IMG/VR virus record: IMGVR_UViG_2671180846_000017
Span: 1-4,156 of that record
DNA from: a virus
Taxonomy: Duplodnaviria > Heunggongvirae > Uroviricota > Caudoviricetes
Direction: 5' to 3' (one strand)
Length of the DNA stretch: 4,156 nt
This document shows positions 1 to 4,156 of the stretch, piece by piece; positions within the stretch are counted from its first letter, which is position 1, and each line of letters begins with the position of its first letter. The notes under the pieces are model-generated. The model was not told where the DNA came from. It did no database searches and saw only the letters and a list, made by a program, of their open reading frames with translations. The translations under genes were made by a program, and so were the position numbers.

Positions 1-266
1 TGGCGCTTATTGTTCGCCAGCAGCGGCTGAAATTAAGCCTGTCCGGAAGGCTGGCGATAAAGATTATTGCCGAGCCACCGGATAAGCGCCGCCGTGACCT
101 GGACAATATTCTGAAAGCGCCACTGGATGCGCTGACGCATGCGGGAGTGTTAATGGACGATGAGCAGTTTGATGAAATCAATATCGTTCGTGGTCAGCCA
201 GTATCTGGTGGACGTCTGGGGGTGAAGATTTACCCCATAATGCTTGAAGGGCTGGTCAAAAAATGA
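1..266 (+). CDS. rusA: RusA-family Holliday junction resolvase, C-terminal portion (5' end lies outside the window)
   Basis: Reading in the frame starting at nt 3 gives ...IKIIAEPPDKRRRDLDNILKAPLDALTHAGVLMDDEQFDEINIVRGQPVSGGRLGVKIYPIMLEGLVKK, ending at TGA 264-266. This aligns with the C-terminal half of E. coli RusA as recalled from memory ([32 protein letters not shown]...KGGRLELTI), including the acidic DLDN and DD catalytic positions. Its stop overlaps the start of the next gene (ATGA, 263-266), as expected for a rusA-Q pair in lambdoid phages. Confidence 0.85.
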   Translation, partial: ALIVRQQRLKLSLSGRLAIKIIAEPPDKRRRDLDNILKAPLDALTHAGVLMDDEQFDEINIVRGQPVSGGRLGVKIYPIMLEGLVKK

Positions 267-1084
267 AACTGGAAGATTTACCGAAATACTACTCCCCAAA
301 ATCCCCCGGCCTGACTGATGCATCGGCCTCAACGTCGAAAGATACGCTGAGTATCACTGATGTGATGGCCGCGCAGGGCATGACACAGAATTGGGCTGAG
401 ATGGGGTTTTCTGCGTTCCTTGGGAAAATGGGCATTAGTATGAATGACAGAGAGCGGGCAACAGAATTGCTGACAGAATATGCACTCAGTCGGTGTGATC
501 GCGTGGCGGCGTTAAGAAAACTCCCGGCAGAAATAAAACCGGCAGTGATGCGTATTATGGCTTCGTATGCGTTTGAAGATTATGCCCGTAGCGCGGCGAG
601 CAAAAAACAGTGCCCCTGTTGTCACGGAAAAAAATTTATTGAAAGCGAGGTTTTTACAAACAAGATCCAGTATCCGGATGGTAAGCCGCCAGTGTGGGCA
701 AAGTGCACAAAAGGCGTGTATCCGTCTTACTGGGAGGAATGGAAAAAAGTCAGGGAGGTGGTAAAAGTTGCCTGTCCGGAGTGTGGAGGGAAGGGGGAGG
801 TTTCCACCGCCTGTAAAGATTGTCGTGGGCGCGGTGTTGCCATTCATCGTGAAGAGTCGGTAAAACGTGGTATGCCTGTTATCAGAGACTGCCAGCGTTG
901 TGGTGGTCGTGGCTATGAAAGATTACCTTCAACGGAGGCATTTAATGCCATATGTAATGTAACCGATGCCATATCTCTTGATACATGGAAAAAAACAGTT
1001 AAACGTTTTTACGATACGCTGGTGGTGCAGTTTGATATTGAAGAAGCATGGGCAGAACAACAACTGAAAAAGGTGACCAGATAG
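263..1084 (+). CDS. Q: Late-gene antitermination protein Q (lambda Q family) with expanded Cys-rich zinc-binding region
   Basis: A 273-aa ORF that is collinear with lambda Q as recalled from memory: YYSPKSP vs FHSPKSP, TDVMAAQGM vs TDVMAAMGM, FLGK vs FCGK, YAFEDYARSAAS vs FAYADYCRSAAT, CQRCGGRGYERLPSTEAF vs CGRCKGVGYSRMPASAAY, TWKKTVKRFYDTLVVQ vs TWSRTVKPLYDALVVQ, and a C-terminal VTR in both. It sits immediately downstream of rusA and immediately upstream of a lambda-like pR'/qut. It is about 65 aa longer than lambda Q because of an insertion in the zinc-finger region. Confidence 0.85.
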   Translation: MKLEDLPKYYSPKSPGLTDASASTSKDTLSITDVMAAQGMTQNWAEMGFSAFLGKMGISMNDRERATELLTEYALSRCDRVAALRKLPAEIKPAVMRIMASYAFEDYARSAASKKQCPCCHGKKFIESEVFTNKIQYPDGKPPVWAKCTKGVYPSYWEEWKKVREVVKVACPECGGKGEVSTACKDCRGRGVAIHREESVKRGMPVIRDCQRCGGRGYERLPSTEAFNAICNVTDAISLDTWKKTVKRFYDTLVVQFDIEEAWAEQQLKKVTR

Positions 1085-1164: not shown

Positions 1165-1188
1165 ACCCGTCGCCAGGCGGGTTTTTTT
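1165..1188 (+). terminator. Intrinsic (rho-independent) terminator, tR'-like, downstream of pR'
   Basis: GC-rich hairpin ACCCG (1165-1169) / CGGGT (1178-1182) with loop TCGCCAGG, followed by a run of seven T (1182-1188). It lies about 60 nt downstream of the predicted pR' start, matching the lambdoid arrangement in which Q-modified RNA polymerase reads through tR'. Confidence 0.6.
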
Positions 1189-1291
1189 ATGACTGAAATC
1201 ACGCCAGTACAGTAAACGCGCTGGTGGTTGTGAATACCGGTCTTTCAGCTTGCTGGCTTTTTCGACAAGAGTTATTGGTGTGTCACGTTAA

Positions 1292-1684
1292 CCGGAAAAA
1301 GGAAAGTTTGAGAAACGCGATCTGGCACAGGCGGTTATTAATGCTGCCTACCTGGTGGCCTGTGCAGATGGTGAATGTGAGGCTTCCTAGAAAGCGAAGA
1401 TCGAACAGGTACTGCGTAATCAGCCTGCGCTGTCCGCGTTTACGTCAGAAATTAATGCGATTAGCGCAACCATTATCGGTCAGCTGGATACGAACTTTAA
1501 AATTGGTCGTCGTGCGGCGTTACGTGAGATCGAGGATGTGAAACACGATACGCGTGAAGCGGAAGATGTGCTGGATGTGGCGGTGGCCATTGCGGAGGCA
1601 GACGGCGAAATTGAGCCGGAAGAGCGCAAGGTGCTGGAAGAGATTGCCGGTGTTCTGGGTCTTCGTCTGGAGAATCACCAGTGA
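1292..1684 (+). pseudogene. TerB-family (tellurite-resistance TerB-like) gene remnant: N-terminally truncated with an in-frame amber codon
   Basis: A single frame translates as PEKGKFEKRDLAQAVINAAYLVACADGECEAS*KAKIEQVLRNQPALSAFTSEINAISATIIGQLDTNFKIGRRAALREIEDVKHDTREAEDVLDVAVAIAEADGEIEPEERKVLEEIAGVLGLRLENHQ*. It carries two ADG-acidic TerB-type motifs and aligns with E. coli TerB from memory (KKFMQGTVAVCARIAVASDGVSSEEKQKMIGFL...AVAKSDGNFDDDEKSAVREIAIALGF). The TAG at 1388-1390 falls where TerB has Glu. The frame is closed by TAA at 1289-1291 with no ATG between that stop and the TAG, and the roughly 25 N-terminal residues expected upstream are absent from this frame. Confidence 0.55.
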
Positions 1685-1797
1685 CGGTAAAACTGCGCCT
1701 GGCTGTGGCTGCACTCCTGCTGTTTCTGGTGGTGATGGTGGATTTCACCAGCAGAATCATGTCGGTGCTGGCGGATGGGGTGCTGGTCTGCGGCATT
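1681..1797 (+). CDS. Small hydrophobic (signal-peptide or transmembrane) protein, N-terminal part only; 3' end lost in the N-gap
   Basis: GTG start at 1681 overlaps the TerB-remnant stop (GTGA, 1681-1684), with GGAG 8 nt upstream (1669-1672). Translation is MTVKLRLAVAALLLFLVVMVDFTSRIMSVLADGVLVCGI..., a basic N-terminus followed by a hydrophobic helix, using E. coli-preferred codons (CTG, GTG, GCG rich). The reading frame runs into the N run at 1798, so its length and C-terminus are unknown. Confidence 0.35.
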
Positions 1798-1847
1798 NNN
1801 NNNNNNNNNNNNNNNNNNNNNNNNNNNNNNNNNNNNNNNNNNNNNNN
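1798..1847. other. Run of 50 N (assembly gap or masked sequence of unknown true length)
   Basis: Directly visible: 50 consecutive N characters. The ORFs that the six-frame track shows crossing it (poly-X) are artefacts. Confidence 1.
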
Positions 1848-2012
1848 CAAAAGTGTTGTTTCTGTTTTTCTCAAACTATCATCGTTATCCCTTTATTTCC
1901 GGCTGCGCATGGCGTGGCCTTTTTTTACGACCAGCCACTGGCAGATGGCCATCCTGTAATTTGATTCCGGTTCCGGCTTTTTAACTCTGTTCCTGTACAC
2001 GGGAGAAATTCG

Positions 2013-3950
2013 ATGTCGATTAAACATTATGATGTTGTCAGGGCGGCGTCGCCGTCAGACCTTGCGGAAAAGCTGACACAAAAACTGAAGGAGGGGTGGC
2101 AGCCATTTGGCAGCCCGGTGGCCATCACGCCTTATACTCTGATGCAGGCCATTGCGGCGGAAGGTGATGTCACCACACCTGTGTTGGTGAAGCCGTCGGA
2201 TGGAGAAGGCACAGTAATCAGCGCCACCAGAGACCCGGAGTATTACTTTGTTGTGGTTCTGGCGGGGCAGTCAAACAGCATGGCATATGGTGAAGGCCTT
2301 CCGCTGCCGGAGACATATGACCGTCCGGACCCGCGCATTAAGCAGCTGGCGCGTCGCAGTACGGTGACACCGGGCGGTGTCGCCTGTAAATATAACGACA
2401 TCATTCCGGCGGACCATTGTCTGCATGATGTGCAGGACATGAGCCGCCTTAACCATCCGAAAGCGGACCTGTCAAAGGGGCAGTACGGAACCGTGGGGCA
2501 AGGGCTGCATATCGCCAAAAAATTGCTGCCGTTTATACCGGCGAATGCGGGCATTCTGCTGGTTCCGTGCTGTCGTGGTGGTTCAGCGTTCACCACCGGA
2601 GCCGATGGCACATACAGTGACGCGAGTGGTGCCTCGGAGAATTCAACCCGCTGGGGTGTGGACAAGCCGCTGTATAAGGACCTTATCGGTCGAACAAAAG
2701 CAGCACTGAAGAAGAATCCGAAAAATGTGCTGTTTGCCGTGGTGTGGATGCAGGGGGAATTTGATTTTGGCGGTACGCCGGCAAATCACGCAGCACAGTT
2801 TGGTGCGCTGGTTGATAAATTCCGTGCAGACCTGGCGGATATGGCAGGTCAGTGCGTCGGTGGCTCTGCTGGCGGTGTTCCCTGGATCTGTGGAGATACG
2901 ACGTATTTCTGGAAGCAGAAGAACGAATCCTCGTACCAGACGGTGTACGGCAGCTACAAAAACAAAACGGAAAAGAATATCCATTTCGTACCGTTCATGA
3001 CCGATGAGAACGGGGTGAATGTGCCGACGAACAAACCGGAAGAAGACCCGGACATTCCGGGTATCGGATATTACGGTTCGAAATGGCGTGACAGCTCAGC
3101 CACCTGGACGTCACAGGACAGGGCGAGCCATTTCAGCGCCTGGGCACGCCGTGGGATTATTTCCGACCGTCTGGCAACGGCGATTTTGCGCCATGCGGGA
3201 AGAGTGGCGCTAAACGCGGGGGCATCATCGACAGTATCAGAGGTGCGCCCGTCATCGCCTTCCGGTGCAGAAGCCACAGGCGTCACAACACTGCTCTCTT
3301 ACCTTGCCAGCGAGTCAGAGGGAAGCCTGAAAGTACAGGGATGGTCAGCCAGTGGCGGCAGGGCAGAAGTGGTCAGCGATGCGGAGGGAACCGGAGGTAA
3401 GGCAGTGAAGCTGACCAAGGAAGCCGGTAAAAGCAGCTGGGTGCTGGAGTACGCCGCGGGCAACGGTGCGGCTCTGTTACAGAAAGGGGGGCAGATTCGC
3501 TGCCGCTTTAAGGTTTCGGGAGCGCTGGCTGCGAACCAGTATGTTATGGCGTTTTACTGGCCGGTCTCTTCACTGCCACAGGGCGTTGCCCTGACCGGAG
3601 ACGGGGGGAATAACCTGCTGGCAGCGTTCTACATCCAGACAGATGCAAAAGACCTGAATGTGATGTACCACAATGCGAAAGTGGCGACAAACAACCTGAA
3701 ACTGGGAACCTTTGGCGCATTTGATAACGAATGGCATACGCTGGCTTTCCGCTTTGCCGGGAATAACAGCCTTCAGGTGACGCCGGTTATTGATGGTCAG
3801 GATGGCACACCGTTCACGCTGACGCAGTCACCGGTCAGTGCATTTGCGGCGGATAAACTGCATGTGACAGACATTACCAGGAATGCGACTTACCCGGTAC
3901 TGATAGACAGCATTGTGGTGGAAGTGAACAGCACAGACACTGCGGCATGA
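2013..3950 (+). CDS. nanS-p: Prophage-encoded sialate O-acetylesterase, NanS-p type (DUF1737 N-terminal domain + SASA/SGNH esterase domain + C-terminal putative carbohydrate-binding domain)
   Basis: A 645-aa ORF with SD GGGAG 7 nt upstream of the ATG. It has the GQSNS motif (aa 85-89; Ser87 codon at 2271-2273) and WMQGEFD (aa 245-251), both characteristic of the sialate O-acetylesterase (SASA / YjhS-NanS) family. The N-terminal approximately 60 aa resemble a DUF1737-type domain. Size and three-part architecture match the NanS-p esterases found between the stx locus and the lysis genes of lambdoid/Stx prophages. It ends with a double stop, TGA TAA (3948-3953). Confidence 0.85.
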   Translation: MSIKHYDVVRAASPSDLAEKLTQKLKEGWQPFGSPVAITPYTLMQAIAAEGDVTTPVLVKPSDGEGTVISATRDPEYYFVVVLAGQSNSMAYGEGLPLPETYDRPDPRIKQLARRSTVTPGGVACKYNDIIPADHCLHDVQDMSRLNHPKADLSKGQYGTVGQGLHIAKKLLPFIPANAGILLVPCCRGGSAFTTGADGTYSDASGASENSTRWGVDKPLYKDLIGRTKAALKKNPKNVLFAVVWMQGEFDFGGTPANHAAQFGALVDKFRADLADMAGQCVGGSAGGVPWICGDTTYFWKQKNESSYQTVYGSYKNKTEKNIHFVPFMTDENGVNVPTNKPEEDPDIPGIGYYGSKWRDSSATWTSQDRASHFSAWARRGIISDRLATAILRHAGRVALNAGASSTVSEVRPSSPSGAEATGVTTLLSYLASESEGSLKVQGWSASGGRAEVVSDAEGTGGKAVKLTKEAGKSSWVLEYAAGNGAALLQKGGQIRCRFKVSGALAANQYVMAFYWPVSSLPQGVALTGDGGNNLLAAFYIQTDAKDLNVMYHNAKVATNNLKLGTFGAFDNEWHTLAFRFAGNNSLQVTPVIDGQDGTPFTLTQSPVSAFAADKLHVTDITRNATYPVLIDSIVVEVNSTDTAA

Positions 3951-3951
3951 T

Positions 3952-3987
3952 AAAAAAACCGCCAGCGACAGGAATGGACGCTGGCGG
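3952..3987 (-). terminator. Perfect 9-bp GC-rich hairpin with a U-tract on the minus strand only; candidate intrinsic terminator for leftward transcription
   Basis: CCGCCAGCG (3959-3967) and CGCTGGCGG (3979-3987) are exact reverse complements around an 11-nt loop. On the + strand the hairpin is preceded by A7 (3952-3958) and followed by TGGTGATACC with no T-tract. On the - strand it is therefore followed by U7, the canonical intrinsic-terminator layout. Confidence 0.4.
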
Positions 3988-4085
3988 TGGTGATACCTAT
4001 GGAGAAAAAATAAAGGAACGATACTTTCGTACTCTGGTTTTTTAATGAAAACAGTTCTTATTGTCAACAATAACGGAAAGAAATT

Positions 4086-4156
4086 ATGACATTTCTGAAC
4101 CAGTTAATGCTGTACTTCTGTACGGTGGTCTGTGTGCTGTATCTCCTTTCGGGTGG
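4086..4156 (+). CDS. Small membrane protein, N-terminal part only (window ends); probable lysis holin by position
   Basis: ATG at 4086 with a weak SD (GGAA, 4075-4078). Translation MTFLNQLMLYFCTVVCVLYLLSG... is strongly hydrophobic. It sits immediately downstream of nanS-p, where lambdoid phages place the holin gene S. The holin assignment is positional; I do not recognise the sequence itself. Confidence 0.45.
   Translation, partial: MTFLNQLMLYFCTVVCVLYLLSG

Follow-up and report, generated by a model that had tools for sequence, protein, structure and literature searches.

A nanS-p sialate O-acetylesterase gene without adjoining stx genes in the late region of a lambdoid prophage of Escherichia coli O26:H11

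What is a nanS-p gene doing in a prophage region that carries no Shiga toxin (stx) genes, and is the absence of the toxin genes real? The question is raised by a stretch of 4,156 nucleotides (nt) of caudoviral DNA (IMG/VR record IMGVR_UViG_2671180846_000017, hereafter the window), which encodes an intact NanS-p-type esterase. A sequence-only reading had remarked on this gene and taken its surroundings as a non-toxin context for the scavenging of mucin sialic acid. The window is the entire scaffold LDYN01000126.1 of the draft assembly GCA_001309465.1, and LDYN00000000 corresponds to E. coli O26:H11 strain 05-6544, an stx1+ eae+ human isolate assembled in 280 contigs (PMC4563881; PMC6266700). 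Our analyses indicate that nanS-p is very probably one of several paralogues in this strain, located in the late region of an stx-free lambdoid prophage, and that it would specify a mucin-sialate esterase predicted to be made on induction and released by lysis. Because 05-6544 is recorded as stx1+, the host is a Shiga toxin producer, and it is only the sampled scaffold, or prophage, that lacks stx. The setting is thus not toxin-free at the level of the strain, the window gene being a paralogue in a second prophage, and an stx-free short draft scaffold tells nothing about the toxin status of the strain.

The nanS-p gene, its domains and its catalytic residues

The gene and the three domains of its product are as follows (aa, amino acid positions of the protein).

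2013..3950, plus strand: nanS-p, 645-aa prophage sialate O-acetylesterase (open reading frame, Pfam, PDB matches 6YP6 and 3PT5)
2022..2162, plus strand: DUF1737 domain, aa 4-50 (Pfam, E=2e-15), a capsid-binding module in phi24B gp84
2223..3191, plus strand: SASA/SGNH esterase domain, aa 71-393 (phmmer match to NanS 3PT5, E=1e-116)
3279..3932, plus strand: C-terminal lectin-like jelly-roll domain, aa 423-640 (99% identity to PDB 6YP6 'NanS-p', E=1e-139; Pfam DUF6645 core at aa 489-607)

The frame comprises 1938 nt, starts with ATG and coincides exactly, stop codon included, with the interval in the open reading frame list. A GGAG Shine-Dalgarno sequence can be read 7 nt upstream of the start codon. 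An identical protein is on record as WP_054632219.1 / KPO33309.1, under the RefSeq name 'SASA family carbohydrate esterase', and the 90% cluster that contains it has 4397 members. The SASA model of Pfam (PF03629) matches aa 80-276 with 44.5 bits against a cut-off of 24.8 (E=1.8e-11), and DUF6645 matches aa 489-607 with E=1e-74; these domain matches are far beyond chance. No model matched in a search of the protein against NCBIfam, and its match in PHROGs is phrog_143, 'unknown function'.

The sequence blocks of NanS can be followed through the window protein. Block I, G85-Q86-S87-N88 (GQSNS, aa 85-89), aligns to 17-GQSNA-21 of NanS; block II is RGGSAF at aa 188-193, the counterpart of 120-RGGSAF-125; block III is MQGEFD at aa 246-251, preceded by W245, the counterpart of 178-MQGEFD-183; and block V is R370-A-S-H373-F-S, the counterpart of R..SHFS-303 (NanS positions as given in PMC10792757). 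Because these blocks match those of NanS, Ser87 (codon TCA at 2271-2273), with the adjacent Gln86, is the nucleophile, and His373 (codon CAT at 3129-3131), with R370, is the base. SASA proteins are distinguished from other SGNH hydrolases by a Gln beside the Ser, which gives an inverted oxyanion hole, and by QGE in place of the classical Asn (PMC9487903). The block V Asp, two residues ahead of the His, is absent from the window protein, as it is from NanS (PMC9487903). The sequence-only reading, which had placed an intact gene with GQSNS and WMQGEFD motifs (aa 85-89 and 245-251) in the SASA/NanS family and had proposed DUF1737 and PF03629 as the domains to look for, is borne out: the 645-aa frame is complete with all catalytic blocks, both domains are found by Pfam above cut-off, the family placement holds (PF03629; 3PT5, E=1e-116), and Ser87 and His373 are both kept in the alignment to NanS.

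The same reading had set apart the C-terminal third as a separate, probably carbohydrate-binding and poorly characterised domain. A separate domain does begin at about aa 423. The question of the protein fold is already answered by two crystal structures found in a search of solved structures, 3PT5 for NanS and 6YP6 for NanS-p, and 6YP6 differs from window aa 423-640 at 2 of 218 residues; 'poorly characterised' is therefore true of the function and no longer of the structure. The putative sugar-binding role agrees with the literature, where the C-terminal domain of NanS-p is assigned a lectin-like jelly-roll fold and a site proposed to bind sugar (PMC8065619, PMC10462455). Residues Y510, Y515, Y540 and F611, proposed for that site (PMC10462455), are invariant across the NanS-p alignment, window protein included. 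In the literature too, carbohydrate binding by the jelly roll is at the stage of a proposal (PMC8065619).

DUF1737 and an extra C-terminal domain placed around SASA form the architecture given as characteristic of NanS-p (PMC10462455), and the window protein has this layout, with DUF1737 at the N terminus, SASA in the middle and DUF6645 at the C terminus. The gene also lies where a nanS-p gene is expected, 3' of the antiterminator gene Q (263-1084) and 5' of a DUF1378 gene (4086), on the lysis side. A 44-aa minus-strand open reading frame (1893-2027) overlaps the nanS-p start and is probably not a gene. Its RefSeq counterpart in the prophage of strain OkiPb01713 (9595-9738; this locus is called L001 below) is a 'hypothetical protein' pseudogene fragment that has neither terminus, and the copy in a further locus, L006 (9484-9626), is also annotated as frameshifted.

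The sequence upstream of nanS-p and the absence of stx

The slot between Q and nanS-p is occupied by the following features.

1303..1684, plus strand: TerB-family pseudogene with deleted 5' end and a TAG stop in frame at 1388-1390 (last 48 codons matched by Pfam TerB, E=1e-7; the stop is seen in the translation)
1681..1797, plus strand: small membrane open reading frame of DUF3927 / TciB-like type, first 39 codons, cut by the gap (PF13064; PHROG 1470 'TciB-like', E=2e-20)
1798..1847, no strand: run of 50 N, a scaffold gap of the draft assembly, exactly between the DUF3927 frame and nanS-p

The window contains no stx sequence, and the Q-stxAB-nanS-p cassette of the stx-bearing comparisons (933W, EH2201, BP-4795 and the O26 Stx1a prophage) is not found there. 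The run of N, which stands beside nanS-p and which the sequence-only reading had passed over when it stated that no stx genes are visible, had to be excluded as a hiding place for the toxin genes. In the alignment to L001, the two flanks of the run fall at 9349 and 9549, 199 bp apart. When a gap-spanning query of 531 nt was compared with 5426 complete E. coli genomes, both flanks were found in 646 of them, always with a span of about 680 bp, and in none of these 646 genomes is stx annotated under the TerB-DUF3927-nanS-p junction, where annotation is confined to TerB, DUF3927, a hypothetical gene and the esterase. In L001, the equivalent of the gap holds the end of DUF3927 and most of a small RNA (sRNA) of STnc100 type, which is matched over its full length by Rfam at 9405-9577 (RF02076, 104.7 bits), between the TerB/DUF3927 moron and nanS-p. 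Only the last ~29 nt of this STnc100-type sequence (1848-1876) survive in the window. A second draft contig encoding the identical protein (L005) carries STnc100-type sequence at the gap, 100% identical to L001 and L006 and located directly ahead of the place at which the window continues. The gap almost certainly corresponds to about 199 bp of ordinary sequence and not to stx.

The right arm of the window (1848-4156) points in the same direction. It is matched end to end, at 99.4-99.9% identity, by prophages without stx, whereas the O26 Stx1a prophage, BP-4795 and the Stx2a phage EH2201 match from 2020 only, and 933W and phi24B from 2235 only, apart from a weak 87% stretch at 2000-2104. The matches to Stx phages and prophages reach 96.6-97.9% identity, and the segment 1848-2019 is matched by non-stx prophages exclusively. 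Because the right arm agrees with non-stx prophages over its whole length, and with Stx phages only in part and less closely, the window gene is not the copy from the Stx1 prophage of the strain.

The upstream slot had been described as holding a TerB remnant and a small open reading frame in place of stx, and this is what we find. Compared with L001, the window lacks 1549 bp (L001 7306-8854; junction at ~1305), a stretch that contains a hypothetical gene, a helix-turn-helix (HTH) domain gene, the tRNA-Ile/Arg/Arg cluster and the initial 50 nt of TerB; the TerB remnant is further interrupted by the TAG codon, and the start of the DUF3927 gene follows it. The 1549 bp are also present in strain 12E115. 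The junction is best read as an inherited or recombined variant and not as an assembly error, since O145 strain RM9154-C1 has an identical one. No Rfam model matched the window at gathering threshold; the tRNAs and the sRNA of L001 are either deleted or within the gap.

A nanS-p gene at a distance from stx had been implied to be out of the ordinary. The observation itself is confirmed, but the situation is ordinary and already described in the literature. Among the same complete genomes, the C-terminal-domain segment of nanS-p matches 2330 places, spread over 722 genomes with a median of 3 and a maximum of 8, against 743 places in 602 genomes for stx2AB and 360 places in 349 genomes for stx1AB, that is, 1103 operons. 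Therefore, at least 1227 copies of the nanS-p C-terminal domain cannot adjoin a toxin operon, and a non-stx context is the majority state for nanS-p. The junction found in 646 genomes agrees with this, and so do published alleles from outside stx phages: NanS-p encoded by phages without stx enables growth on Neu5,9Ac2, and, according to the review PMC8065619, the seven nanS-p alleles of EDL933 and the five of O104:H4, all prophage-borne, all gave active esterases.

Predicted expression and function of NanS-p

Three hairpins bear on the expression of nanS-p.

1165..1189, plus strand: terminator-like hairpin (1165-1182) and T-run (7-pair stem, 5 GC pairs, TTTTTTT tail), ~80 nt after Q
1901..1926, plus strand: terminator-like hairpin (1901-1919) and T-run (8-pair stem, 6 GC pairs, TTTTTTT tail), ~90 nt 5' of the nanS-p start
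3959..3978, minus strand: hairpin with a 9-bp stem directly 3' of the nanS-p stop (minus-strand site 3971-3959, TTTTTTT tail)

By its position, the hairpin at 1165 would be the tR' of the late operon; 933W and phi24B carry an analogous annotated pR'/qut/terminator, and a promoter scan of the window returned no pR' at the scan threshold. We propose that a decayed moron of tciA/tciB (TerB/DUF3927) type and the STnc100-type sRNA occupy the slot between Q and nanS-p, and that nanS-p would be transcribed from pR' by readthrough of the terminators at 1165 and 1901 once Q is made, upon prophage induction. Such control is suggested by gene position and by the literature, and is consistent with the rise of nanS-p expression on mitomycin C induction (PMC10462455). 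The hairpin 3' of nanS-p is a terminator on the minus strand only, and would stop antisense transcription and not the late transcript. No signal peptide region appears to precede DUF1737, and the protein would leave the cell by phage lysis. It would then hydrolyse O-acetyl ester bonds at C7/8/9 in the sialic acids of mucin, converting Neu5,9Ac2 to Neu5Ac; the resulting sialic acid could be used as a carbon source, and each further gene copy could add to growth on this substrate. DUF1737 may also tether the enzyme to phage capsids, as in phi24B. We infer the esterase activity on Neu5,9Ac2 and mucin from the sequence identity and from what has been published about other alleles.

Several points weigh against this proposal. 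Activity and expression of this particular allele are likewise inferred, and its protein has two private substitutions, S307 and V635, where 8 of 8 other fully read copies have T and A, although neither residue falls within a catalytic block. The prophage itself may be defective, as TerB is decayed and the tRNA/HTH segment deleted. The 4.2-kb scaffold samples only part of the prophage, so that Q-dependent expression and release by lysis are not guaranteed, and the left arm is connected to the right one through a scaffold join that spans the run of N.

Another explanation, compatible with the first, is that NanS-p is mainly a component of the virion and not an aid to host nutrition, with DUF1737 hexamers seated on capsid hexons and the esterase and lectin-like modules acting on mucus or acetylated surface glycans during phage spread. 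It derives from phi24B, in which the NanS-p homologue gp84 is an abundant capsid-decorating protein whose DUF1737 is seated as a hexamer on the central hexons of the T=9 capsid, anchored by a Tyr42 'tooth', and which is cleaved near SSP motifs, with a SISSP motif and Gly54 nearby (2026 preprint, bioRxiv 10.64898/2026.04.10.717836). This result raises the question of virion display for alleles with another anchor loop, in unrelated long-tailed prophages. Virion display is favoured by the initial 31 residues of DUF1737, which hardly vary between any of the alleles compared, and by the location of nanS-p, always in the late operon beside lysis and head genes. The anchor region of phi24B (Tyr42, Gly54, SISSP), on the other hand, is replaced in the window protein by a shorter loop, TPY41T, in which a Tyr is present (Y41), and by DVTTP in place of SISSP; a second motif, PSSPS at 413-417, is kept.

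The heads of related prophages bear on the same question. Two long-tailed prophages, L008 and L009, carry a nanS-p allele with 99.5-99.7% protein identity to the window and an identical N terminus of 105 residues. The head of L008 (locus 17834-24524) is of the DUF1441/terminase/ClpP-capsid fusion type, and that of L009 (locus 4588-9465) of the HNH/TerS/TerL/645-aa capsid type. In blastp (E<=1e-3), terminases and capsid proteins from phi24B, L008 and L009 gave no matches to one another, nor did the portals of phi24B and L008, a small sample. A capsid-specific fit is doubtful because the identical N terminus occurs with mutually unrelated head proteins. Conversely, another DUF1737 loop type (L002) accompanies packaging genes as in L001. 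One N terminus with two head modules and one head type with two loop types fit neither a rule of one allele for one capsid nor proven promiscuity. As a separate observation, the late-region cassettes of L008 and L009 move independently of the head modules.

On balance, we regard a mainly virion-borne NanS-p as possible but somewhat unlikely. Still less likely, in our view, is the more specific proposition that the variable segment at aa ~32-75, made up of the second half of DUF1737 and the linker, is a swappable capsid-adaptor cassette, or that DUF1737 binds a generic feature of HK97-fold hexons, the esterase being in either case displayed as well on the capsids of lambdoid prophages that are long-tailed and free of toxin genes. 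If it were true, the many nanS-p paralogues of enterohaemorrhagic E. coli would be primarily mucus-targeting virion equipment and not host nutrition genes.

The window gene could also be a silent passenger of no measurable effect, a redundant paralogue whose cryptic prophage is decaying and has ceased to be induced. The TerB pseudogene next door, the loss of 1549 bp relative to L001 and the redundancy implied by up to 8 C-terminal-domain places per genome would fit such a fate, but the 1938-nt frame is intact with all catalytic residues, Q is intact, and the twelve EDL933 and O104:H4 alleles cited above, prophage-borne as well, are all active esterases. We consider this improbable.

Finally, the absence of stx might be an artefact of assembly, as the strain is stx1+, the scaffold is short and comes from a 280-contig draft, the gap falls exactly 5' of nanS-p, and paralogous prophage regions are easily mis-joined; this is extremely improbable in both its forms, the run of N hiding stx1AB being rejected on the collinear flanks 199 bp apart in L001 and L006, the 646 complete genomes without stx and the STnc100-type sequence of L005, and a chimera between the TerB arm and nanS-p of the Stx1 prophage of the strain being rejected because the right arm is of non-stx type from 1848, while the O26 Stx1a prophage (L013) and BP-4795 join it from 2020 and, like EH2201 (L003), 933W and phi24B, match a partial stretch at lower identity.

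Gene order of the late region and comparison with known alleles

The esterase predicted to be induced with the prophage is set in the late operon of a lambdoid prophage, of which the window contains the following further genes.

3..266, plus strand: RusA Holliday-junction resolvase gene, 3' part, cut by the contig start (Pfam RusA, E=4e-9; collinear with RusA in L001 and L002)
263..1084, plus strand: late antiterminator Q, 273-aa type, with DnaJ-like CxxC (CxxCxGxG) zinc fingers (Pfam Antiterm, E=5e-50; PHROG 127/25523 'anti-termination protein Q-like')
4086..4156, plus strand: start of a DUF1378 open reading frame, the first gene toward the lysis cassette, cut by the contig end (Pfam DUF1378, E=2e-11)

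Beyond DUF1378, the collinear complete genomes continue with DUF826, a class II holin, lysozyme, Rz and terminase. A 273-aa Q has been described in a single Stx2a prophage (strain 00-3076) and is unrelated to Q933 and QO111 (PMC10462455); it has the length of the Q of the window. Window positions 1303-1797 align to L001 8855-9349, where TerB is intact (8805-9236), while TerB of RM9154-C1 is annotated with an 'internal stop'. The full DUF3927 gene measures 168 bp in L001 and L006, and PHROG 1470 bears the label 'TciB-like inhibition of cell division or resistance to colicin'. The TerB and DUF3927 pair (1303-1797) resembles a moron of tciA/tciB type, with TerB dead and the start of the small open reading frame intact.

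The alleles of 933W (L0105 / z1466) and phi24B (vb_24B_21 / gp84), for which activity or structural work has been published, likewise encode proteins of 645 aa with the three-domain layout, share all SGNH/SASA blocks and Y510/Y515/Y540/F611 with the window protein, and occupy an equal position between Q and the DUF1378/DUF826/holin lysis cassette. Overall identity of the window protein to both (933W L0105 and phi24B vb_24B_21) is 91.0%, but this value conceals 52.8% for aa 1-105 and 98.7% (533 of 540) for aa 106-645, where none of the 7 substitutions falls in a catalytic block. The difference lies in the second half of DUF1737, which in the window has a shorter loop lacking SISSP, and in an unlike linker. 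The 5' neighbours also differ, being tRNAs and stx2AB in 933W and phi24B and the TerB/DUF3927 remnant in the window, whose nearest full-context relatives are long-tailed prophages and not podoviruses of 933W type.

Much closer are the copies in the non-Stx prophages of O145:H28 12E115 (WP_000023293.1) and OkiPb01713 (WP_106907365.1), identical to the window protein at 643 and 642 of 645 positions, respectively. Their loci share the DUF3927/STnc100 segment on the 5' side and the downstream genes with the window, but retain TerB in intact form as well as the HTH gene and three tRNAs, which the window lacks. O145 RM9154-C1 has both the 1549-bp deletion and the TerB stop of the window.

The NanS-p proteins of Stx1 phages (BP-4795 YjhS; Stx1a prophage of O26 RM10386) have a DUF1737 of the window type, with aa 1-57 nearly identical, and their genes show 97.5% nucleotide identity to the window from 2020 on. 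They differ in the linker (aa 58-75), in carrying stx1AB ~500 bp upstream and in the sequence 5' of the start codon, which is unrelated to that of the window. The DUF1737 core (aa 1-57) is thus common to the window and to BP-4795 and O26 RM10386, the linker (aa 58-75) is common to the window and to the non-stx RM9154 copy, and aa 106-645 are nearly identical in every allele examined. These comparisons indicate that NanS-p is a mosaic at the sub-domain level, with recombination breakpoints inside the gene.

Outside the E. coli that make Shiga toxin (STEC), the first ~150 nt of nanS-p (DUF1737) find matches of ~91% identity in many E. coli genomes, ST131 included. These coincide with genes named 'DUF1737 domain-containing protein' or 'SASA family carbohydrate esterase'. 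The remainder of nanS-p is unmatched at these places, and the pattern suggests that the capsid-binding DUF1737 module may be joined to other partners in non-STEC E. coli.

Chromosomal NanS (YjhS, PDB 3PT5, 337-residue chain), a member of the nan regulon, matches aa 71-393 of the window protein only, with no counterpart of DUF1737 or of the jelly roll. It is chromosomally encoded and not phage-borne (PMC8065619, PMC10462455). Its block I-III motifs, and its Ser-His pair lacking the block V Asp, are as in the window protein.

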